A stretch of 40,008 nt of DNA from an uncultured Gammaproteobacteria bacterium (GCA_964590105.1 CAZPYM010000004.1:1-40008); one strand, 5' to 3'. Numbered from the stretch's first letter, positions 23,264 to 40,008 are shown. Made by a program: numbers and translations. The notes: a model not told the origin generated them from the letters alone.

Positions 23264-25438
23264 TTACTCAGGGAAGCATTCGAAGTCTGTAAACCACACT
23301 TCCCCTTCACCGGCCGAATCTATCAGGCCGGGAATTTTTGTTTCAAACTCATGGTCGCACTGAATCACAGCCTCTGCCGGATCAAAGCACGCCCACTCGT
23401 TTGGATATTTGCAGGCGCAGTTGAAATCAATCCAGGCCGCGCCTCGCTCACATATTTCCCCGATTGTTGAGCTAAAGCTAGCCGCGCCCCCCCCGCTCGC
23501 TTGGCCAGAAGCGCCATACCAGACAAAAGCCTTCATGTCAGAGGGACAAATGACAGTGCAATTAACGCTGTCGCTTTTTTCTGGTTCTTCGTCGCCTTCA
23601 GGCTCATCTATCGGCTCCGGCACAAACTCCGGCTCCGGTTCATTTTCAGGCTCTGGCTCATATTCCGGATCTGGTGCCGGATCTGGTGTCGGATCATCTT
23701 CCGGTTCAATTTGTATTGCGACGCAAGCGCCGGCAAAACAAAGCTTTCCGGAAGGACACAGCTCGCCCTCGTCAATCTGGCCGTCGCAATCGTTGTCAAC
23801 GGCGTCGCAGACTTCGAACGGAACAGATCCGCATTGGCCGCAAGCGTTTTTCACGCCCTCGTCAATCTGACCGTCGCAATCGTTATCAACGGCGTCGCAG
23901 ATTTCAATCGGAACAGCTCCACATTGGCCGCAAGCGTTTTTCACGCCCTCGTCAACCTGGCCGTCGCAATCATTATCAACGCCGTCGCAGATTTCAATCG
24001 GAACAGCTCCACATTGGCCGCAGACGTTTTTCACGCCTTCGTCAATCTGGCCGTCGCAATTATTGTCAACGCCGTCGCAGATTTCCATCTGGCCGGGAAA
24101 AACATTCTGATCGCTATCGTCGCAATCACCGGCGTCCGCTGAAATGCCGTCGCCGTCATTGTCGATTGTCAGCTGAAATCCCTGCCAACCCTGGCCATAC
24201 TCATTGCTAGGGTTAAGGCATTGCTGACTTTGCTCCGTCGTAATCAAACTGCCAATATTCTGCAGGCTGGCATAGAACTGATCCTGTCCCACCAGTGTGA
24301 CCGGCAGCTGATCATAGCCCATCTCGCAAAACAGGTTCCAATTTTCAAACGGCAAAAGTTCGCCATTGTGGACAGCCACGAAAACCGCGCCCGGACCATA
24401 GCCCGGCACGCTAAAGGTCGGCTTTACCAACGTGCCATGACGCACATAGAGCAGGCCGCCACTCGCATACTTGCTGAAATATTTTACTTCCGCTTCTGAA
24501 ACGTTCAGCTGTTTGACCATTCCCTGAATATTCCAGGAATTAAAGCTGACAGCCGATGAAAACTGATAGACAGAGCCGCCGCTCGAACCGAGTGACTGCT
24601 TTTCCATCAGATAATATATTTCCCCCACTTTGAACAGCTCGCGATACGGCTGCCAATTGATTTCGCCGCCGTACGAGTAACATTCAAATTCGCTCTCTGA
24701 AATCTGAATCACTTTTTGCCAGTCAAAGTTATGGGCGTTGAAAACCGCCTCATTGATAATCCAATGCGCCTTGCCATCGATCAAAACATAAATCTTGGCA
24801 TCGCCCGCAACCTGAATCAGCGAACCGTCAGGATGCCAGGAAACCGGCGAAGTGTCTACAAACAAGCTAGCGTAATTGGATGTCTGCCATGAAGCCAAAA
24901 ATTGGTTATGGCTGTAATAATTGTACTCGCCGAGGGTCTTGCCCGGGTCGTGCACAATCACTTCAGTTTCATTCAGGCCGACCAGCAGCATGAAATGTCC
25001 CTGCTTTTGCGGATCCATCTGAATATTGACCGCCACAATGATTGGATTGCCTTTGGACAATTTGTCCGCCAGAAGATCCAGATCGTTTTTGTTTTGCTTG
25101 ACCAACGGGCCCAGCTTGAAATACCCGGCCAGCACATTGGACAAAAGAGCCATGGTCGTGGCATTGCCGTCATAATAATCAGCGCCCGGCTGGGGGCTGA
25201 GATAATTGTTTTCGTAGAGCCAATCAATAACAGCCTTGAGGCCGTCTTCTGTTGGCGCGAAGTCAAGGTAATAGCCGGCCAGCATAAGAGCTGAAGCCGG
25301 ACCGCAGTTCATATTCTGGCTCCAGTCGCCGGGCGGTGACTGAGATTTGAACTGCACATTGTCGAGCTGAATGTCCGCGGCTCTCGCCGGCAGAACAAAG
25401 ACAACTAAACTGCCAAGAATCATTAGCCAGCTTTTCAT
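23264..25438 (-). CDS. large secreted protein: signal peptide, C39-like peptidase domain, central domain, 4x Cys/Asp-rich DNDCDG repeats, Pro/Glu-rich linker, Cys-rich C-terminal domain (724 aa)
   Basis: Start moved to the ATG at 25438, preceded by AAAAGGAGGCAGCG (MKSWLMILGSLVVFVLPARA). NCGPASALMLAGYY and GHFMLLVG..VHDP. Repeats are CDGVDN(D/N)CDGQ(I/V)DEGVKNxCGQCG. Confidence 0.8.
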   Translation of the reverse strand: MKSWLMILGSLVVFVLPARAADIQLDNVQFKSQSPPGDWSQNMNCGPASALMLAGYYLDFAPTEDGLKAVIDWLYENNYLSPQPGADYYDGNATTMALLSNVLAGYFKLGPLVKQNKNDLDLLADKLSKGNPIIVAVNIQMDPQKQGHFMLLVGLNETEVIVHDPGKTLGEYNYYSHNQFLASWQTSNYASLFVDTSPVSWHPDGSLIQVAGDAKIYVLIDGKAHWIINEAVFNAHNFDWQKVIQISESEFECYSYGGEINWQPYRELFKVGEIYYLMEKQSLGSSGGSVYQFSSAVSFNSWNIQGMVKQLNVSEAEVKYFSKYASGGLLYVRHGTLVKPTFSVPGYGPGAVFVAVHNGELLPFENWNLFCEMGYDQLPVTLVGQDQFYASLQNIGSLITTEQSQQCLNPSNEYGQGWQGFQLTIDNDGDGISADAGDCDDSDQNVFPGQMEICDGVDNNCDGQIDEGVKNVCGQCGAVPIEICDGVDNDCDGQVDEGVKNACGQCGAVPIEICDAVDNDCDGQIDEGVKNACGQCGSVPFEVCDAVDNDCDGQIDEGELCPSGKLCFAGACVAIQIEPEDDPTPDPAPDPEYEPEPENEPEPEFVPEPIDEPEGDEEPEKSDSVNCTVICPSDMKAFVWYGASGQASGGGAASFSSTIGEICERGAAWIDFNCACKYPNEWACFDPAEAVIQCDHEFETKIPGLIDSAGEGEVWFTDFECFPE
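23765..24090. repeat. 3.6 tandem copies of a 90-bp (30-codon) near-identical coding repeat
   Basis: Units start at 23765, 23855, 23945 and 24035, with only a few substitutions between units. In frame within the 724-aa gene. Confidence 0.9.
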
Positions 25439-25509
25439 CGCTGCCTCCTTTTGCCGAAACAATCCATCCTTATCGGATGTGTTCCGGCGGCTTTGGGTTT
25501 GCGGTTTTG

Positions 25510-25551
25510 GCACGCAAAGCAGAAGCGCAATTTCGCTTCTGCTTTGCGTGC
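25510..25551. other. 18-bp perfect stem hairpin (GCACGCAAAGCAGAAGCG-CAATTT-CGCTTCTGCTTTGCGTGC) between two minus-strand genes
   Basis: Read directly. There is no U-tract on the minus-strand side; GATGTTTTGTTGTT follows on the plus side. Confidence 0.8.
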
Positions 25552-28429: not shown

Positions 28430-30031
28430 TTAAATTTGTCTTAATATTTTCTTCAACCGCTCAACCATTTCATTATACAACCACAACCGCTCGGGCGCTA
28501 TGCAATAATCGCATTTGCAAGCGGAATAAACAGAATACCAGATAGCCCGACAAAGCTGCCAAAAATCGCGATTAAAAACTTTATTTTTAATATATTTTTC
28601 CGCTTCACTTTCAATTTGCTGAATCAATGATTGCAGATTCACTTCCGCTCCTGACCTTTTCAATTCCAAGTCTTTGCGAATAACTGAAACATAGTAACCA
28701 GCCAGATCAATGGCAACATTCCCTATGGCTTTTGATTTTTCCAAATATGGAACAGCCTGGCGCGGATCAATAAAATAGGCCTTGTCGTCTTTAACAATGA
28801 TGTTGCCAACACTCAAATCTTTGTGCGCCATTGAACAGATATTATGCGTCAAGAAATGTTTTTCATTTTTTTTAATTTTTTCCAAAATCTCCGCCGCTTC
28901 GGCAATCGGCCATTCGGCCTTTTCAAAATTTATTTTCAATGCTGACAATAATTCATTAAAAAATAATTTAGATTGAACAACATCTTCTCTTTTTGTTGCT
29001 TCATGAATTTGACGAATCAACCGCAGAACCGCCTGATTATATTTTTCCAAATTGATTTTATCAGCCGCAACGGCCAAACGATAGGCTTGCTCCAAATTTT
29101 TCTCGCCCAAAAATTCAATCTCCAGGATTGCCGCTCCATCTTGTTCGAAAATCAGCTGAACGTCGGGAAAAGCTTTACAGCCGTTAAGCTTTTCCGCGAA
29201 GCGTTGGTAATTGTCCAATTCCTGCCTGATTTTTTCAACAGCTCCGACTTTGTAAATCTTTTTATTATACAAAAATACCCGTGAATCAGACGAGCCGGAC
29301 AATTTTTGCAATTGCCCTTCCTGAAAATCATTTTGGCCAAAATAATTAGCGAGAATATCTTTTAACGGATTATCCTTGCCCATTAAAAATTTTTTTATTT
29401 GCAAAATATCATTAATAATATAATCGGCAAACTCTGACTCATTGCCGCCGACCAGAATAGTTGTCATGCCCAGTTTTTTTGCAGGAGCAATGTCCGTGCA
29501 TTCCTGATCACCGACGGAAATGCAATTTTTGCATTCAATGCCGTATTTTTCCGCAATGAACTGAAAGCGATTATTATGATCTTTGCGAATATCACTCTCG
29601 CCCGTGAAAAAATTTTTTTGAAAAATATTTTCAATTTCCAATTGTTTCATCACGCGTTCCACCCAAACTTTAGGGGCGTCGGAAACCAGCGCCAGATTAT
29701 ATTTTTTGCTGAGGCTCTTCAAAATAACATTAATGTCCGCTTGCTCTTCCATCAAAGGCGCCGGATCAATGTCCCAGACAAAATTAAAATATTCATAACG
29801 ATCTATTCCGTGCTCTTTTTCAAGACCAAGGCTGATTCCTTGTTTATATTTATCAATCACGTCTTTTAATATCTGTTCCGCCTGCTCTATGCTTTTGTTT
29901 AATTTTTTTTGGATATACAGCCGCGCATTTTCAAGAACTTTAACTTTTAATTGCGAATTGTCATAAGACCCGCCCTTTAATTTGTAAAGGGTGCCGTCAA
30001 GATCGAAAATTATCAATTTTTTGTTTTCCAT
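28430..30031 (-). CDS. fusion protein: N-terminal HAD hydrolase plus C-terminal APH/choline-kinase-like phosphotransferase (533 aa)
   Basis: IIFDLDGTLY and VGDQECTDI (HAD motifs I and IV). Kinase catalytic loop HKDLSVGN and metal-binding FIDP. Confidence 0.75.
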   Translation of the reverse strand: MENKKLIIFDLDGTLYKLKGGSYDNSQLKVKVLENARLYIQKKLNKSIEQAEQILKDVIDKYKQGISLGLEKEHGIDRYEYFNFVWDIDPAPLMEEQADINVILKSLSKKYNLALVSDAPKVWVERVMKQLEIENIFQKNFFTGESDIRKDHNNRFQFIAEKYGIECKNCISVGDQECTDIAPAKKLGMTTILVGGNESEFADYIINDILQIKKFLMGKDNPLKDILANYFGQNDFQEGQLQKLSGSSDSRVFLYNKKIYKVGAVEKIRQELDNYQRFAEKLNGCKAFPDVQLIFEQDGAAILEIEFLGEKNLEQAYRLAVAADKINLEKYNQAVLRLIRQIHEATKREDVVQSKLFFNELLSALKINFEKAEWPIAEAAEILEKIKKNEKHFLTHNICSMAHKDLSVGNIIVKDDKAYFIDPRQAVPYLEKSKAIGNVAIDLAGYYVSVIRKDLELKRSGAEVNLQSLIQQIESEAEKYIKNKVFNRDFWQLCRAIWYSVYSACKCDYCIAPERLWLYNEMVERLKKILRQI

Positions 30032-31968: not shown

Positions 31969-32663
31969 ATGTCTCAAATAAAACTACAATTCATAAAAAA
32001 TTTCCAAAAAGAATATTGGTTTATAAAAAATAAACTCAACGCCGCAGAGAAAGAAATTGGAAAAAAAAGATTTGCTTTAATTGTTAATTATAATATTCCA
32101 AATTGCTACAACAAAGACAAAAAAAAATTATTTCAGGTCTAATTGTATATTTTGACCGCAACCGTGAACAAATTCAAAAACAAATATCAAAAAAAGCAAC
32201 CGCAATGGAAAAAAGATGGAAAAAATATGGCAATGCATTCTTTGAGCAAGTAAGAGAAGCAACAAAAGTTAGATGGCGCCATAGGACATACAAGAGCCAC
32301 TTCGTATATTCGTGTTTTTGGGGTGGAGATTATGATATCAATAAAAACAACATCTATATTAATCCCCTCATTCCCCAGGGAGATCCGCTGTATGTTATTT
32401 TTCATGAACTGTGTCACTTGCACTACTGGGAATACATCTATTCCGAACACTCCGCCAGCTTCATTAAAAAAAACCATCAGTTATTATGGAAACTATCAGA
32501 AGTAATGGTAAACTATCCCCTCCGGAAAATAAAAATCAATTATCGTTTTCCAATGGTAATTCCGCCCAATCTAAAACATTTCAGTTCCGCCATCATAAAA
32601 TCATTCTCCACTGAAGAATTCGCAAAGATTATTAAACAAACAATAAATATAAAAGCCAAGTAG
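31969..32663 (+). CDS. HExxH (HELCH) putative zinc metallopeptidase, split by a frameshift in an A9 run (32119-32127)
   Basis: A 57-codon ATG ORF (31969-32142, frame 1) and the ORF-track ORF (32103-32663, frame 0, TTG start only) overlap at the A9 run. One extra A would fuse them as ...NKDKKKIISGLIVYF... Motif VIFHELCHLHYWE. Confidence 0.55.
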
Positions 32664-32730
32664 ATGCCACTTGGCTTTTATCTGTGAGATGTGGTGAATT
32701 TATTTTATCAAAAAAGTTATTTTGCTTTTT

Positions 32731-33432
32731 TTATTTTTTCTGCGCCATTACAAACAACCGAGCCGCGCCACGAATTTTTTTTCTTCCATTCAAATCCGAA
32801 CAAAACGATATTGAGCCGAATCCACTACCTTTGGCTAATTTTTGTATTTCTTTCATGGAATATAATCTTTCTATATGTCTTTCGCGAAAGACTTTTCCTT
32901 TATCCGCAATTATTATGTCTGCCTGCCAAAACTTTCCCTTTACCTTATTCACCATAGTAATATTATCTTTTTTGATCACTGGCGGTAATATTTTAAAATT
33001 AGTATTAAAATCAAAAATAAAAAAACCTTCGCTCTCCAAGTGCCCGGAAATATTTTTAAAAAATGCTCCCATTTCGCTCAAAGTCAATAAATAGTTAATG
33101 GAATCAAACGTTGAAACAATTATATTAAACTTCTCTTTTATCCGAAAATCGGCAAACGATCGCGTATAAAAAGCCACGCCCTTATTTCTTTTTTTGGCAA
33201 TTGAAACCATACCCGGCGAGCAATCAAACCCAGAGATAGCCGCGGCCGGAAATTGTTTTTGAAATTCTTTAATAAACAAGCCGGTACCGCAAGCCGCATC
33301 TAATAACTGAATCTTGTTAATTCGCCGTTCAGTAATTATTTTTTTAATAAAAATCACATAATCACGGTAAAAATCGCGATCATAAATTTCGTCATAATGT
33401 CTTGAAAACTTTTGGTAGCAGTTTGCTCTCAT
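32731..33432 (-). CDS. class I SAM-dependent methyltransferase (233 aa)
   Basis: Motif I LLDAACGTGLF, motif post-I GFDCSPGMV, and typical size. Confidence 0.85.
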   Translation of the reverse strand: MRANCYQKFSRHYDEIYDRDFYRDYVIFIKKIITERRINKIQLLDAACGTGLFIKEFQKQFPAAAISGFDCSPGMVSIAKKRNKGVAFYTRSFADFRIKEKFNIIVSTFDSINYLLTLSEMGAFFKNISGHLESEGFFIFDFNTNFKILPPVIKKDNITMVNKVKGKFWQADIIIADKGKVFRERHIERLYSMKEIQKLAKGSGFGSISFCSDLNGRKKIRGAARLFVMAQKK

Positions 33433-33477
33433 AAATATAAATTCCTGGCAATCCGAAAGGCTGCCAGGACGTGAGCG

Positions 33478-34866
33478 CTATAATCCCTCTAAAGGGATAC
33501 CATTCTTCTGAAGAAATGGTCTTGCTACTTCAACAAAAAACCTAACTGCCTGGCAAGCATAATCATCGCGAGAATTGTAAAAATCACCATGAAGAAAATA
33601 TGCATTTGCCCGACAACCCGTTGCACAATATTTCCGCAATTCGCAATCCTTACACCCCTCAACGTCACCAATCCGGATTTCTTTTACTTGCTGCATGGCC
33701 GATGAGTACCAAATTTCAGCAAGTGAATTTTTTCGAACATTACCGACTGGGAAATCCGAACAATAGGCACAAGAAACAACATCCCCGTTCGGCTTAATAC
33801 AACAAGTTTCTCGTTTATCTTCATAATCACAAACGAAATCCTTATCAGATAGTGCTTGTAAATTACCAAACAGTTCTTCACGATAAAGATATTCTATCTG
33901 TAAATGAAACGTACGACCTTCGTGAAAATGGTGTTGTAGCAAAGAAAAGGCTGCATTCGTCATTTCTACCCAAGATAGGCCATACTCTTTGGCCCCAACA
34001 TCCTTAAAGTACCCCATTTCCTTTGGGTAACCAATTCTCCAGCTTTTGACGCCCATGCTTTTTACGATATTATACATCGCAGGAAGAGTATCAATATTAA
34101 GTCGGTTCATTACTGTATTAATCACCACTGATATACCACTAGCAACAAGAGCCTGAATGTTTCCAAGGATTGTGGCCAGTGCAACTTTAGCATTCGTCTG
34201 AGAAAGACCACGGAATCGCATACCTTCAACTGTTATAGAATCCAAACTGACAAAAACCGTTGGATTACTTCTTGTTTTAAGAATATTTCCAATTTTTTGC
34301 TCATCAAGCAAAATAGCATTAGTAAAAACAGAAATAATTCGGATCTCCCTGTCTTCAAACAGCTTCATCATCGGAAATAAATCATCCTGTAAAAATGGCT
34401 CCCCACCACTTACGCTAACACCCTGCACAAGCAGTTCCCTCATTTCTTCTGCCAGCCGCTCGATTTCAGCGAAAGTCAAATTTTCGTCTTTATTGTATCT
34501 TTCCCCTTGGTAGCAATGTACACACCTAAGATTGCAACTGCTACGAACCTCCAGATGCACAATCTGGAGTCCCCTATTAGGCGGTAATTTGTTCGGAAGT
34601 ATGCGCAAGGCTGGACCTTCTGTTTTTTTAACAATGCCCTTCTTCACAAGCTCATCGTGAAATACTTGCGCCACCGGGCGTGATTCTACGTCAAAAAGCT
34701 TAAGAATGTCTACGCCTCGGCGTTGACCATTGCACATTGAAAGAAACTCAAATTGTCCTTCCTGTAGCTCAAATCTCAATCCATCCGTGACTCGCATCAG
34801 TACAGGACTTGACTCATATCCCTTGAGTGAATACTCAGGTGAAAGAATCAGATATTTTTTTGTCAT
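33478..34866 (-). CDS. radical SAM/SPASM-domain peptide maturase with N-terminal PqqD/RRE-like domain (462 aa)
   Basis: RBS GGAGCAGGAGGGACGGCA. CNLRCVHC (Cx3Cx2C). C-terminal Cys-rich SPASM region (CCIKPNG..SCAYC..., CKDCELRKYCATGC). About 95 aa precede the SAM motif. Confidence 0.9.
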   Translation of the reverse strand: MTKKYLILSPEYSLKGYESSPVLMRVTDGLRFELQEGQFEFLSMCNGQRRGVDILKLFDVESRPVAQVFHDELVKKGIVKKTEGPALRILPNKLPPNRGLQIVHLEVRSSCNLRCVHCYQGERYNKDENLTFAEIERLAEEMRELLVQGVSVSGGEPFLQDDLFPMMKLFEDREIRIISVFTNAILLDEQKIGNILKTRSNPTVFVSLDSITVEGMRFRGLSQTNAKVALATILGNIQALVASGISVVINTVMNRLNIDTLPAMYNIVKSMGVKSWRIGYPKEMGYFKDVGAKEYGLSWVEMTNAAFSLLQHHFHEGRTFHLQIEYLYREELFGNLQALSDKDFVCDYEDKRETCCIKPNGDVVSCAYCSDFPVGNVRKNSLAEIWYSSAMQQVKEIRIGDVEGCKDCELRKYCATGCRANAYFLHGDFYNSRDDYACQAVRFFVEVARPFLQKNGIPLEGL

Positions 34867-34884
34867 TGCCGTCCCTCCTGCTCC

Positions 34885-34924
34885 AAAAAATATTGGCGGG
34901 GTCTATTTAGAACAGATCCCCGCC
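34885..34924 (-). terminator. intercistronic hairpin plus T-run between the short ORF and the rSAM gene (attenuator-type terminator)
   Basis: Minus strand reads GGCGGGG-ATCTGTTCTAAATAGA-CCCCGCC followed by AATATTTTTTGG. Confidence 0.65.
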
Positions 34925-34956
34925 ATCGTTGATGGTTTCACTGACAGGACCACATT

Positions 34957-35061
34957 CTACGTGCCGGGAGGGCTCGCATTCAGCGCCTGTGTCAACCGAT
35001 AGTTGATCAACTTCTTGCGAAGTTTACCAACCGTCATCCTGAACTTCGGTTTCTTTTTCAT
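34957..35061 (-). CDS. 34-codon ORF, candidate precursor peptide MKKKPKFRMTVGKLRKKLINYRLTQALNASPPGT
   Basis: AGGAGGTGATTGGC then ATG at 35061; TAG stop at 34957-34959. It is below the ORF-track length cutoff and I translated it by hand. Confidence 0.5.
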   Translation of the reverse strand: MKKKPKFRMTVGKLRKKLINYRLTQALNASPPGT

Positions 35062-35092
35062 GCCAATCACCTCCTTTCAATTGGCTCTCATT

Positions 35093-35108
35093 CTTAGCGA
35101 CCGCTAAG
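35093..35108. promoter_or_regulatory. palindrome CTTAGCG-AC-CGCTAAG in the 5' leader of the rSAM operon (candidate operator)
   Basis: Read directly. It lies between the predicted -10 and the RBS. Confidence 0.35.
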
Positions 35109-35144
35109 GTTAAATTTAAAGGACACGTCAATTCCCTTTATTTT

Positions 35145-35172
35145 ATTGTAAACCTTCAACCTAATTTGTCAA
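35145..35172 (-). promoter_or_regulatory. promoter of the rSAM operon (TTGACA, 16 nt, TACAAT)
   Basis: Minus-strand TTGACA at 35167-35172 (a second overlapping copy at 35174-35179) and TACAAT at 35145-35150. Confidence 0.55.
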
Positions 35173-35251: not shown

Positions 35252-35284
35252 CGGGCAGGCCATTCGACCTGCCCGTTTTTTTTT
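35252..35284 (+). terminator. strong plus-strand intrinsic terminator with no annotated plus-strand gene upstream
   Basis: CGGGCAGG-CCATTCGA-CCTGCCCG followed by nine T. Confidence 0.6.
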
Positions 35285-35606: not shown

Positions 35607-36029
35607 TTACTTTCCGCTCCGTTCATCTGCGCCGGATCGCGCCACGCTCCACAAGCGGAAAAACATCCGCCTCATATCCTCGGCAAAAGAAGCGTTGTCA
35701 ATCACGAAGTGTTCATCGCCGTCCGATACGGCCACGCTCTCGCCAAGAATCAGCATTTCGGTTTTGAAATCGTACTCGCCAACCGGCAAATATCTGATTT
35801 CAACTTTGGAATCGCCGACCAGCAGAGCTTGCAAGCGCGGATTCAATTTCGCTTCATGAGCGACATAGAGGATTTTGAATTCCGAGGCTCTTTTCAAAAG
35901 CGCCTCAACATGTTCAGCTTCATAGAAGCGCCCAAAGCGCTCCTCATTAAAAATGTTCAGGGCTTCGCCCTGCGCGCGAGCCAATACCGCCTCGCGTAAA
36001 CCGTTGAGATCGACACTTTTCTTTTTCAT
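35607..36029 (-). CDS. hypothetical protein (140 aa)
   Basis: RBS CAGGAGGGCGAGAG then ATG. No motif recognised. Confidence 0.65.
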   Translation of the reverse strand: MKKKSVDLNGLREAVLARAQGEALNIFNEERFGRFYEAEHVEALLKRASEFKILYVAHEAKLNPRLQALLVGDSKVEIRYLPVGEYDFKTEMLILGESVAVSDGDEHFVIDNASFAEDMRRMFFRLWSVARSGADERSGK

Positions 36030-37166: not shown

Positions 37167-37790
37167 ATGCAAATACGAGAACGAAAATTAAACCGGTATG
37201 GCGCTATTGATTATTCATTGCCGGGATTTTATTTTATCACCATTTGCATTGCTGAACACGAGAAATATTTTGGTACAATAACCAACAAAAAAATGTACTT
37301 TAATAAATACGGCGGTCTGGCAAATGTTTATTTGCAAATGATCCCCAATTATTACCAAAATGTGGTTGTTGATTGTTTTGTTGTTATGCCGAATCATATA
37401 CACGCGATAATACAAATCAAACCGCCGTCGTCAATCGCCATCCGGGTAGGGACAGAATTTAATTCTGTCCCTACCAACCCCGACGCAACCAACCCCGACG
37501 CAACCAACCCCGACGCAACCAATCCCGGCGCAACCAATTTGACGGCGCGCACAAAACAAACCAGAAATTATGGGTTATTATCAAAAATCGTGAAATCATT
37601 TAAACATGATTTCACCAAAACAATCAAATGTTTATATAAAAATCACGAATTCAAATGGCAGAGGTCATTTCATGATCATTGGATACGCAATGAAATCGGT
37701 TTAACTAATATCCGTTCATACATCCGGCGTAATCCGGAAAAATGGAATTCGGATCGAAATAATGACGCCCATCGTAGGGACAAAATTTAA
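37167..37790 (+). CDS. REP-associated tyrosine transposase / IS200-like Y1 transposase family protein (207 aa)
   Basis: HUH motif VVMPNHIHAIIQI. C-terminal FKWQRSFHDHWIRNE...IRSYIRRNPEKW with the catalytic Tyr region. Confidence 0.85.
   Translation: MQIRERKLNRYGAIDYSLPGFYFITICIAEHEKYFGTITNKKMYFNKYGGLANVYLQMIPNYYQNVVVDCFVVMPNHIHAIIQIKPPSSIAIRVGTEFNSVPTNPDATNPDATNPDATNPGATNLTARTKQTRNYGLLSKIVKSFKHDFTKTIKCLYKNHEFKWQRSFHDHWIRNEIGLTNIRSYIRRNPEKWNSDRNNDAHRRDKI
37471..37545 (+). repeat. about five tandem 15-nt units (CAACCAACCCCGACG) encoding (TNPDA)n inside the RAYT gene
   Basis: Three near-perfect and two decaying copies, read directly. In frame. Confidence 0.9.
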
Positions 37791-37990: not shown

Positions 37991-38911
37991 ATGAAGAAGG
38001 CATTTGTGTTCTTTGCAATTTCGATCTTTGTCGGTTTCGGCTTCTCTGCCTGTTCCGGCTTCTCGGCTGACGACGGGGGCGTCAAATTCGCCTGCGCCGA
38101 CTCCTGCGACATGATGGTCAAATGCGGCGCGGACAGCGACGCGGACAAATGCAAAAAAAACTGCTCCGCTGATTACGGCGATGAAAATTCCCTGTGGACC
38201 TGCAACGCCGACTGTTGGCTGAATGCCGGCTCGTGTTCGGACGGCGAAAGCTGTGTCAAGTACAAATGCGATGATCCGGAAAATCCTAACCCTTGCGATT
38301 CCATCACCCTGCCCGGCTCTTGCGGCGACGGGTGTTGCGATCAGCAGGGAGGAGAAAATTCTGAAAACTGTTGGGACGACTGCCAAGACGCTCCCTACTA
38401 TTGCGGCGACGGAAAGTGCGAAGGAATCATCAACATATATCATAGCGAAACCCACGGCTCCTGCCCGGCTGACTGCGGTCTCTGCGGAGACGGCAAGTGC
38501 GAGCTGGATGAAAATTGCAACGACTGCGAGGACGACTGCGCCTGCGCAGATGGACAGCTTTGCAATGAAACCTCGTTCGTCTGCGAAGACGATCCTCTGG
38601 CAGAGTACTACTGGCTGGAGGGAATGTGGAAACGCACAGAAGTAAATGGAATCCCCGATGGCCAAATTGTAGAAGTAACCATTGATCACTGGGATGATGA
38701 AAAAGGCGCAATGGTAAAAAACTTCAAACCACTTGGTGGGTGCTGGATAAAAAAAAATTCTGAAACTTCAGAATTCTCATTGTTTGTAGAATTCGATGAC
38801 GGCAACTATGCCGAAGGTTGGGCAATTGAGGCCACCGAAACGGTTGAGTTTGACTCTTGTGATGCCGGTGGGACTCTCTGTTCGCACACCGTTTACATAA
38901 AGCTCAAGTAA
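37991..38911 (+). CDS. Cys-rich secreted lipoprotein with three CGDGxC...C..DC modules (306 aa)
   Basis: RBS GAGGAGAAAATC. Signal peptide with GFSAC. Modules CGDGCCDQQGGENSENCWDDC, CGDGKCEG...CPADC and CGDGKCELDENCNDCEDDC. Confidence 0.7.
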   Translation: MKKAFVFFAISIFVGFGFSACSGFSADDGGVKFACADSCDMMVKCGADSDADKCKKNCSADYGDENSLWTCNADCWLNAGSCSDGESCVKYKCDDPENPNPCDSITLPGSCGDGCCDQQGGENSENCWDDCQDAPYYCGDGKCEGIINIYHSETHGSCPADCGLCGDGKCELDENCNDCEDDCACADGQLCNETSFVCEDDPLAEYYWLEGMWKRTEVNGIPDGQIVEVTIDHWDDEKGAMVKNFKPLGGCWIKKNSETSEFSLFVEFDDGNYAEGWAIEATETVEFDSCDAGGTLCSHTVYIKLK

Positions 38912-38966: not shown

Positions 38967-40008
38967 CTAAGGAATTACATAAATAAATCCATCATAATAT
39001 TCAGCCGCATTTTTATTATCCGAGTATTTTAAATCACAATCATCATAGCCATTGTTCCCACTATCATCATAATACCCATCTTCATCAACCGCATCTCCAT
39101 ACGCATCATGATCCGCATTACACCAGCCCCAATTGTCTTTGATCTGCACAGCCGGCTTGAAGCGACAGCCGCGCTGGCCACCTTGGCCAGGAACCTCGGT
39201 CTGGCAGTATGACGCTGTGGCCGCTTCCGAGGTTCCGCACTCCGGCACGCCGGAGATTGTCTGGCACATATACATGTGCTTGTAATTGAAATACCCTTCC
39301 TTGCAAGCGTCGACTGTGTCGCCGAAGCGGTCGGCTTTGCACGACTCCTTTAGAGTTGCGGCATCCGAATCATAATCACAGTCAGCGTCAACCCAACATT
39401 TCATTATTCCACCCTGATCGGCTGTTAAATGATCACATTCATCACTATCCGGTGAACAAGCATAGCCATAATACAATCCCGGTCCCGGCTTGTTACAAAC
39501 ACCCAGTTCCTCCCCGGCCGATCGCTGGCACCGCGGCTTGTGGTTTTGGTACAAACCTTCCAATGGCCCCAGCGTTTTGCTGTCGCCCCAGTCAACCGTA
39601 ACACTCCGGATCGGCATCTGATCATCATCAGCCCATGCATAGAACTTCAAACTAATATCCAGTTGGCCGTCAAATCCTACAACATCGCCTTCAAGCGCAG
39701 TAAAGTCAGGCGTTGATACGGTCAATTTATCCGGCGCCGCCGCGTAGAGCGGATTGCCGGCTTCGTCGGATTTCTGAGTATTTACGAATCCTGCCACGGT
39801 CGGAGGATTTTGAAGCGCTGTTTCACTAATATCCCAAATATTACCGGCATCTTTATTCTCATAAAATGTCTCTACAGAATTGCTGGGATATGTATTGTTG
39901 TATATATGGCAGACAGCGGCTTGATCTTTTCCGGACACTGTCTTTGCACTGCCGCATGCGCTATTATTTAATGTAAAATACCCCTTTATGCAAGCGCCAT
40001 TCCAGAAG
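38967..40008 (-). CDS. Cys-rich secreted protein, 5'-truncated by the window edge (347 codons visible)
   Basis: The frame stays open from the GTG at 39938 up to position 40008, so the true start lies outside the window. It contains a PKD-like WGDSKT segment and many Cys/Asp. Confidence 0.7.
   Translation of the reverse strand, partial: FWNGACIKGYFTLNNSACGSAKTVSGKDQAAVCHIYNNTYPSNSVETFYENKDAGNIWDISETALQNPPTVAGFVNTQKSDEAGNPLYAAAPDKLTVSTPDFTALEGDVVGFDGQLDISLKFYAWADDDQMPIRSVTVDWGDSKTLGPLEGLYQNHKPRCQRSAGEELGVCNKPGPGLYYGYACSPDSDECDHLTADQGGIMKCWVDADCDYDSDAATLKESCKADRFGDTVDACKEGYFNYKHMYMCQTISGVPECGTSEAATASYCQTEVPGQGGQRGCRFKPAVQIKDNWGWCNADHDAYGDAVDEDGYYDDSGNNGYDDCDLKYSDNKNAAEYYDGFIYVIP

Follow-up and report, generated by a model that had tools for sequence, protein, structure and literature searches.

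We analysed a 40,008-nucleotide stretch of DNA from an uncultured Gammaproteobacteria bacterium (GCA_964590105.1 CAZPYM010000004.1:1-40008), here called the window, in which a short open reading frame (ORF), a gene for a radical S-adenosylmethionine (SAM) enzyme with a SPASM domain, here named rSAM, and a class I methyltransferase gene follow one another on the minus strand between 32649 and 35172 (Table 1). A first-pass annotation had read this region as a compact operon for a ribosomally synthesised and post-translationally modified peptide (RiPP), and all the parts that it listed, from the sigma-70-type promoter to the 34-codon ORF and the two enzyme genes, were found where it had placed them. 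The unit is bounded 5' by the promoter and 3' by a terminator-like hairpin. The RiPP-like reading is supported by comparative and structural evidence, and we put the probability at roughly 0.75 that precursor, rSAM and methyltransferase form a self-contained cassette predicted to make a modified peptide.

Table 1. Features of the cassette, in coordinates of the window.
Feature	Position	Strand	Details
Sigma-70-type promoter, TTGACA-16-nt spacer-TACAAT	35145..35172	-	TTGACA at 35172-35167, TACAAT at 35150-35145; 11/12 match to consensus
Inverted repeat of 7 bp in the 5' leader, CTTAGCG-gt-CGCTAAG	35093..35108	-	Probably an incidental stem of the 5' untranslated region
Shine-Dalgarno sequence, AAGGAGGTGA	35067..35076	-	10/10 match to consensus, 5 nt 5' of the ATG
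Precursor peptide gene, 34 aa	34957..35061	-	VGKLRKK leader motif, RLTQALN core, tail ASPPGT
Terminator-like hairpin (34925-34894) and T6 (34890-34885)	34885..34925	-	-21.7 kcal/mol, z = -3.4
N-terminal domain of the rSAM like a RiPP recognition element (RRE; PqqD-like winged helix), residues 1 to ~92	34591..34866	-	Predicted from structure model, hhalign and Foldseek
Radical SAM core and SPASM domain	33478..34590	-	Pfam; one 462-aa protein together with the RRE-like domain (33478-34866)
Second hairpin, CCTGGCA...TGCCAGG, with T-rich tail, in the rSAM-methyltransferase spacer	33444..33468	-	-17.4 kcal/mol
Class I SAM-dependent methyltransferase, 233 aa, proposed tailoring enzyme	32731..33432	-	Pfam; starts 45 nt past the rSAM stop codon
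Terminator-like hairpin closing the unit	32649..32681	-	15-pair stem, then a T-rich tail

The product of the short ORF, MKKKPKFRMTVGKLRKKLINYRLTQALNASPPGT, is basic and has the C-terminal end RLTQALNASPPGT. An alternative GTG start lies three codons 5' of the ATG, at 35070; the ATG is preferred because the spacing of the Shine-Dalgarno sequence favours it. Both this GTG and the second hairpin of Table 1 were absent from the first-pass annotation. The peptide is one of about 45 short basic peptides that form a family with an invariant core, RLTQALN. In each locus with upstream sequence, exactly one basic ORF, about 26-50 aa long and with RLTQALNA(S/G)xPG(T/S/E) at its end, lies 57-216 nt 5' of the rSAM gene; the search for homologous short ORFs that the annotation had suggested found them 5' of homologous maturases in all full loci examined. 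A profile search retrieved 31 called homologous peptides of 30-63 aa, none of them named and every one containing RLTQALN. About 10 residues 5' of the core a leader motif, [GS]-x-L-[RK]-[KR], is conserved, and the N-terminus is basic, with a conserved Lys/Arg/Ser-rich composition. The core has no Cys in any of the ~45 peptides (the sporadic Cys residues are confined to a few leaders and the tail of the L128 peptide) and no conserved aromatic residue, the position before the Arg varying between Y, F, V, L, H and P. Precursor peptides were not recognised by Pfam or NCBIfam even at E-values up to 10, and the RLTQALN motif was not found in the searchable microbial literature.

Over seven independent loci, the nucleotide differences in the seven core codons are all synonymous, and the codons used comprise four for the Arg, four for the first Leu, four for the Thr, both Gln codons, four for the Ala, three for the second Leu and both Asn codons. 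Since the variation is synonymous only, selection acts on the peptide and not on an RNA element, and a conserved RNA element in place of the peptide was ruled out on these grounds. When metagenome DNA was scanned with the back-translated core motif alone (Arg as CGN), 120 loci were obtained. In eight of them the motif came after a basic N-terminus and was followed by a stop at a distance of 3-10 codons, and all eight had an rSAM homolog beside them; about 70 matched by chance, in long ORFs or where the context was not basic, mostly at high G+C content, and none of these had an rSAM homolog beside it. At the level of sequence, the co-occurrence of peptide and enzyme holds both ways.

The rSAM matches the Pfam families Radical_SAM (PF04055, residues 110-265, E = 3.3e-19) and SPASM (PF13186, residues 351-409, E = 4e-11). 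In an alignment of 34 homologs the cluster motif C111-x3-C115-x2-C118 (CX3CX2C) is invariant, and C346/C356, G361-x4-C366, C405-x2-C408-x5-C414-x3-C418 and C438 in the SPASM region are invariant or nearly so; the seven-Cys SPASM pattern for two auxiliary Fe-S clusters is complete. In an AlphaFold model (predicted local distance difference test, pLDDT, 93.7; predicted template-modelling score 0.91), residues 1-82 adopt a beta-beta-beta-alpha-alpha-alpha arrangement with a pLDDT of about 95. Aligned by hhalign with N-termini that score as PqqD, the N-terminal domain gave a probability of 93% and an E-value of 2.9e-7, and PqqD was the commonest weak Pfam match to it (5 of 23 members). The RRE that the annotation had postulated at the N-terminus thus finds its counterpart in a domain that models as, and profile-matches, a PqqD-type RRE.

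Comparison of the model with the Protein Data Bank by Foldseek placed SuiB first (E-values of 6e-20 to 9e-19, 462-467 aligned columns, that is, full length, template-modelling scores of 0.61-0.70), followed by SkfB, TigE and CteB, and the alignments with TigE and CteB were also full-length. PqqE and the anaerobic sulfatase-maturating enzyme (anSME) were aligned over about 355-390 columns only; these two proteins are not known to carry a fused recognition domain. A sequence profile compared with solved structures gave SkfB, SuiB (1.2e-18) and CteB as best matches, and the match to CteB (profile positions 22-218) begins inside the N-terminal domain. No curated NCBIfam model reached its cut-off on the rSAM, the best being MftC (TIGR03962; 102 against a cut-off of 265 bits), with PqqE (TIGR02109) at 78 against 381 bits. 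An identity as anSME was rejected, as this enzyme aligns over the core only (~380 columns) and ranks under the RiPP maturases, and as an RRE-like domain and a conserved peptide are present. By sequence and modelled fold, the rSAM groups with peptide maturases and not with sulfatase maturases or cofactor enzymes. The annotation had named a place among the latter, without a conserved upstream peptide, as the contrary outcome; the nearest matches are SuiB, SkfB, TigE and CteB.

Among about 88 full-length relatives of the rSAM (30-74% identity) no characterised protein was found. Where a source is named, the labels, which are those that depositors gave to their bins, are mostly Patescibacteria/Candidate Phyla Radiation (CPR: Kuenenbacteria, Parcubacteria, Nomurabacteria) or DPANN (Nanoarchaeota); a single distant cluster bears the label Actinomycetota. 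The bin label Aenigmatarchaeota is also represented among the contigs. An exhaustive profile search yielded about 20-30 clusters (at 50% identity) above ~350 bits, grading into 2,502 relatives at E <= 1e-30, and a scan of a genome collection with the rSAM alignment, which picks up generic SPASM patterns, gave one family member (L010) among the 80 loci listed. The cassette, with its peptide core shared by many ultra-small, CPR- or DPANN-labelled microbes, very probably represents an undescribed family of enzyme-modified peptides. Loci whose rSAM is 30-42% identical have related but different cores, QLKVAIHPVGPD (L010), NMKATLNNNNK (L211) and NLKATMNNDNA (L212), and keep the [GS]-x-L-[RK] leader motif, the hairpin and the methyltransferase. 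The pattern phi-x-[LM]-[TK]-x-[AT]-[LMI]-[NH] persists across these subfamilies, and peptide core and enzyme co-vary.

Other loci showed arrangements of their own. In L213 (1-3796) an rSAM relative of 33% identity is preceded by a hairpin and an acidic 24-aa ORF, MKKETIMDLTEMVEVGVIMCSTES, which contains Cys, Ser and Thr; a 715-aa YcaO protein and no methyltransferase lies 3' of this rSAM, which suggests a hybrid rSAM/YcaO peptide pathway. The second rSAM genes of L001, L004, L006 and L008 were rejected as family members: their identity is 19-26% where they matched, with no match for L004a, and because of this low identity and of other or no obvious precursors they are taken as different systems. 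One of them, unrelated to the rSAM of the window (L004, 2664-4055), is preceded by a 47-aa ORF that ends about 100 nt before it and has the Cys-rich C-terminus ...AAKCGTCACKCACRYNNNPKKTPW; the two genes resemble a Cys-based rSAM peptide system of their own within that organism. At 5441-6000 of L004, whose bin is labelled Nanoarchaeota, and in its close relative L121, a perfect TTGACA-17-TAnnnT and AAGGAGGTGA stand before the precursor; these bacterial-style signals point either to CPR contamination of the bins or to a transfer of the cassette between domains.

The methyltransferase of the window matches the Pfam families Methyltransf_25, 12, 31, 11 and 23. Among the 13 loci long enough to show it, 12 have the methyltransferase next after the rSAM on its strand, the exception being L006, in which a GNAT gene and another gene stand between the two. 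The motifs LDxACGTG, FDSxNY, GxFIFDxNT and ExHxERLY are common to the family, and identities to the window for rSAM and methyltransferase, respectively, are 74/55, 54/43, 48/46, 46/40, 44/32-37, 42/35 and 42/25%; on these sequence comparisons the methyltransferase co-diverges with the rSAM. The methyltransferases compared are those in the family loci, a homolog search having given three relatives, probably owing to its word prefilter.

The genes around the cassette do not share this conservation. Neighbours in the window, including HExxH, AstE-like, GNAT, HAD-kinase and YerC-like genes, have homologs in none of 15 family loci, and these five were rejected as parts of the system. The annotation had supposed that the HExxH and AstE-like proteins could trim the product; both lie outside the promoter-to-terminator unit and the idea was given up, the HExxH gene being on the other strand, convergent and past the terminator. 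The segment 32001-33000, which spans the methyltransferase and the convergent HExxH gene, has the lowest G+C content of the window (0.329), and the 3' end of the cassette may be of mosaic origin or horizontally acquired. On the other side, 80 nt 5' of the cassette promoter, a strong G+C-rich hairpin at 35252-35275, flanked by an A-run and, at its other end, by a T-run, could terminate transcription in both directions; it separates the cassette from an upstream gene (35607-36029, 140 aa) that has no family match.

The score of the cassette promoter ties for best in a 7-kb scan. Of 14 family loci, five have a perfect TTGACA-N16/17-TAnnnT 56-118 nt 5' of the start codon of the precursor gene, and nine have, at equal spacing, a Shine-Dalgarno sequence that matches at least 8 of 10 positions. 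The leader palindrome is present as annotated, but the operator role proposed for it was rejected: perfect inverted repeats of at least 7 bp arise in 7% of shuffled leaders, that is, at chance level, and the repeat is not conserved in any of 13 other loci. An element, TCTTTAAC, occurs in the 5' leaders of some loci only. Rfam detected no riboswitch or known leader RNA in the window at the gathering threshold, nor in the leader at E-values up to 1.

Between precursor and rSAM genes, the hairpin of the window has a stem of 14 bp, interrupted by one bulge, and a loop of 3 nt, and is followed by AAUA and U6. A G+C-rich hairpin with a T-run is found at this junction in 12 of 13 loci, with unrelated sequences. 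In the control, a hairpin with a T-run was also present in 8 of 13 rSAM-methyltransferase spacers, that of the window included. The attenuator, or leaky terminator, that the annotation had placed here is thus present and recurrent, without being particular to the junction; it is plausible but weaker than claimed, because similar hairpins follow the rSAM gene in these eight loci. Graded termination after each gene, with a read-through that we infer, would be the more accurate description.

We compared the cassette with characterised systems. In the streptide system SuiA/SuiB, SuiB has the same three-domain architecture and the short precursor gene lies directly upstream, as in the window, although the identity of SuiB to the window rSAM is only ~16%. 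The streptide modification is a Lys-Trp C-C crosslink (PMC9389541). The window core has neither Trp nor Lys, the window cassette adds a conserved methyltransferase, and the taxa and the basic leader differ. In TqqA/TqqB of Streptococcus suis (TQQ subfamily), an aliphatic ether between adjacent Thr and Gln forms a backbone morpholine (PMC9389541). The likeness to this system, judged by the core dyad alone, lies in a core free of Cys and aromatics with an invariant adjacent Thr-Gln in RLTQALN; in L010, L211 and L212 the Thr-Gln is replaced by Lys-Ala or Lys-Val. As the dyad is lost in distant subfamilies, the likeness to TqqB is only a lead, and any chemistry common to the whole superfamily is not a Thr-Gln ether.

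The sactipeptide and ranthipeptide maturases SkfB, CteB and TigE are top matches in sequence and fold, and the CteB match covers the RRE region. Sactipeptide and ranthipeptide chemistry needs Cys donors, which the RLTQALN core does not offer; nor does it offer a conserved Trp, Tyr, Phe or His, in contrast to the streptide, darobactin and triceptide types. With no Cys and no conserved aromatic in the core, sactipeptide, ranthipeptide, streptide, darobactin and triceptide chemistry is therefore excluded. The pathways of mycofactocin (MftA/B/C) and pyrroloquinoline quinone (PQQ; PqqA/D/E) share with the cassette an rSAM-SPASM enzyme, a PqqD-type RRE, a short precursor and an invariant core. In those pathways, where the C-terminal part of the precursor is acted upon, the RRE is a separate protein, whereas that of the window is fused, and their other genes were not found in the loci; moreover, the window peptide ends in PGT and not in the MftA-type Val-Tyr, and the PqqA-type Glu-x3-Tyr is absent. 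In lantibiotic-type operons, such as nisA-nisB, a hairpin stands 3' of the precursor gene. A stem-loop with a T-run between precursor and maturase, which would give an excess of precursor transcript, is common to these operons and the cassette, with the difference that in many family loci hairpins also stand 3' of the maturase gene.

From these elements we propose the following mechanism. The strong promoter and the near-perfect ribosome-binding site would give high expression of the 34-aa precursor, and the junction hairpin with its T-run would probably stop most transcripts, the rSAM and methyltransferase being made at a lower level by read-through. The fused RRE would bind the basic leader, most likely via [GS]-x-L-[RK]-[KR], and the radical SAM site, aided by the two auxiliary SPASM clusters, would take a hydrogen atom from a residue in R-L-T-Q-A-L-N. 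The outcome may be an intramolecular crosslink or an epimerisation involving aliphatic or polar residues and not Cys or aromatic ones, and the co-inherited methyltransferase would then methylate the product.

Several points weigh against a peptide-modifying cassette of this kind, beginning with the modification itself, which is predicted from computational evidence alone. The support for the RRE from sequence is moderate, the Pfam matches to PqqD being sub-threshold and the hhalign template made of three sequences, and the idea of charge complementarity between an acidic RRE and the basic leader was rejected, since family members differ in the net charge of this domain, from -10 to +13. The basic N-terminus of the peptide is unlike the acidic or hydrophobic leaders of many RiPPs, and the hairpin, as said, is not specific to the precursor-rSAM junction. 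No leader peptidase, protease, exporter or transporter is conserved with the cassette in the family loci, which is unusual for secreted RiPPs; the product may therefore keep its full length as a small modified protein, or depend on the general machinery of the cell for processing. Finally, a core that is near-invariant over enzymes 40-55% identical is commoner among cofactor precursors and recognition motifs than among antimicrobial cores, and RLTQALN could for this reason be a recognition element.

This last point leads to a different division of the peptide, with RLTQALN as recognition site only, the chemistry falling on the variable basic N-terminus or the tail, and the leader kept in a permanent small basic protein that binds, for example, nucleic acids or the envelope. 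Such a division is favoured by what is seen in most RiPP families, whose precursors are conserved in the recognition region and vary in the core, by the missing conserved protease and exporter and by the conserved Lys/Arg/Ser-rich composition of the N-terminus. The separate [GS]-x-L-[RK]-[KR] motif, however, persists in distant subfamilies with other cores and is therefore the better candidate for binding by the RRE, and in PqqA, MftA and SuiA modification falls on residues nearer the C-terminus, so that we regard the division as improbable. Slightly better odds, though still poor ones, go to a precursor of a cofactor like PQQ or mycofactocin, from which a core-derived moiety would be excised for redox or catalytic use inside the cell. 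The scores of MftC and PqqE lie far under their cut-offs, even if MftC is the best, sub-threshold, NCBIfam match and PqqE is also listed there and appears among the fold matches. Near-invariance over ~45 peptides recalls PqqA and MftA, and the lack of a conserved exporter would suit an intracellular product; against this, the Tyr and Glu residues on which those pathways rely are missing from the core, the cassette is not accompanied by any conserved peptidase, oxidoreductase or cofactor-dependent enzyme, and the differing cores of the distant subfamilies argue against one universal cofactor.

We judge it least probable that the short ORF encodes a cis-regulatory leader or arrest peptide, in which a ribosome at ...NAS-PG-T-stop controls the terminator hairpin while rSAM and methyltransferase act elsewhere. 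The order of short ORF, terminator hairpin and enzymes is indeed the classical attenuation layout, and in about 4 of 12 loci the hairpin starts no more than ~14 nt past the stop codon, as estimated from spacer folds, where a terminating ribosome could block its folding; yet the estimated distance from stop codon to hairpin varies from ~6 to 37 nt, and hairpins also stand 3' of the rSAM gene, where there is no leader peptide. The C-terminal Pro-Gly of the peptide is conserved and resembles known arrest motifs, and invariance over distant taxa would be in keeping with a target that is itself conserved, the ribosomal exit tunnel for example. An arrest peptide, on the other hand, has no need of the conserved leader motif and the basic N-terminus, nor would its core be expected to change along with the divergence of the enzyme, as it does here. 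The rSAM carries a predicted peptide-binding RRE and groups with peptide maturases; it therefore needs a peptide substrate, for which no other conserved candidate lies nearby. We thus retain the precursor-rSAM-methyltransferase cassette as our reading.

Further genes of the window were observed at some distance from the cassette. At 23264-25513 (minus strand), about 8 kb away, is the gene for a protein of 749 aa with a Peptidase_C39-like domain and four MopE-type, putatively copper-binding repeats; C39-like peptidases are associated with bacteriocin processing. The gene at 28430-30031 (minus strand) encodes an unusual 533-aa fusion of an N-terminal HAD phosphatase and a C-terminal RIO1/Bud32-like kinase region. 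A homolog of IS200-like Y1 transposases (37167-37790, plus strand; weak Pfam match) contains an in-frame tandem repeat of 15 nt in 4.3 copies (37473-37537), encoding TNPDA units. Two Cys/Asp-rich proteins of 306 and 323 aa (37991-38911, plus strand; 38967-39938, minus strand) have no Pfam match, and around them the G+C content is ~0.50, against 0.33-0.43 near the cassette.

In conclusion, the cassette is best classed as an uncharacterised addition to the radical-SAM-modified peptide systems, notable for its taxa, for an invariant core that is free of Cys and aromatic residues, for the basic leader and for its minimal set of three genes. It is possible, although we are doubtful, that it defines a new class of rSAM-modified peptides, specific to ultra-small, episymbiotic lineages (CPR/Patescibacteria bacteria and DPANN-labelled archaea), with an as yet unseen crosslink or rearrangement of aliphatic or polar residues followed by methylation, and with a core conserved for a host-interaction signal or a peptide-derived cofactor. 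As the core lacks the Cys and aromatic residues that most characterised rSAM-SPASM chemistries use, the enzyme is a promising place to look for radical chemistry of a new kind, and the system, one peptide and two enzymes with no other conserved partner, is small enough for direct co-expression work. RiPPs of CPR/Patescibacteria and DPANN are barely described, graspetides being the subject of the only report found (PMC8939145). These tiny genomes hold few accessory pathways, and the retention of the cassette across many lineages with a near-invariant core therefore suggests a function under strong selection.

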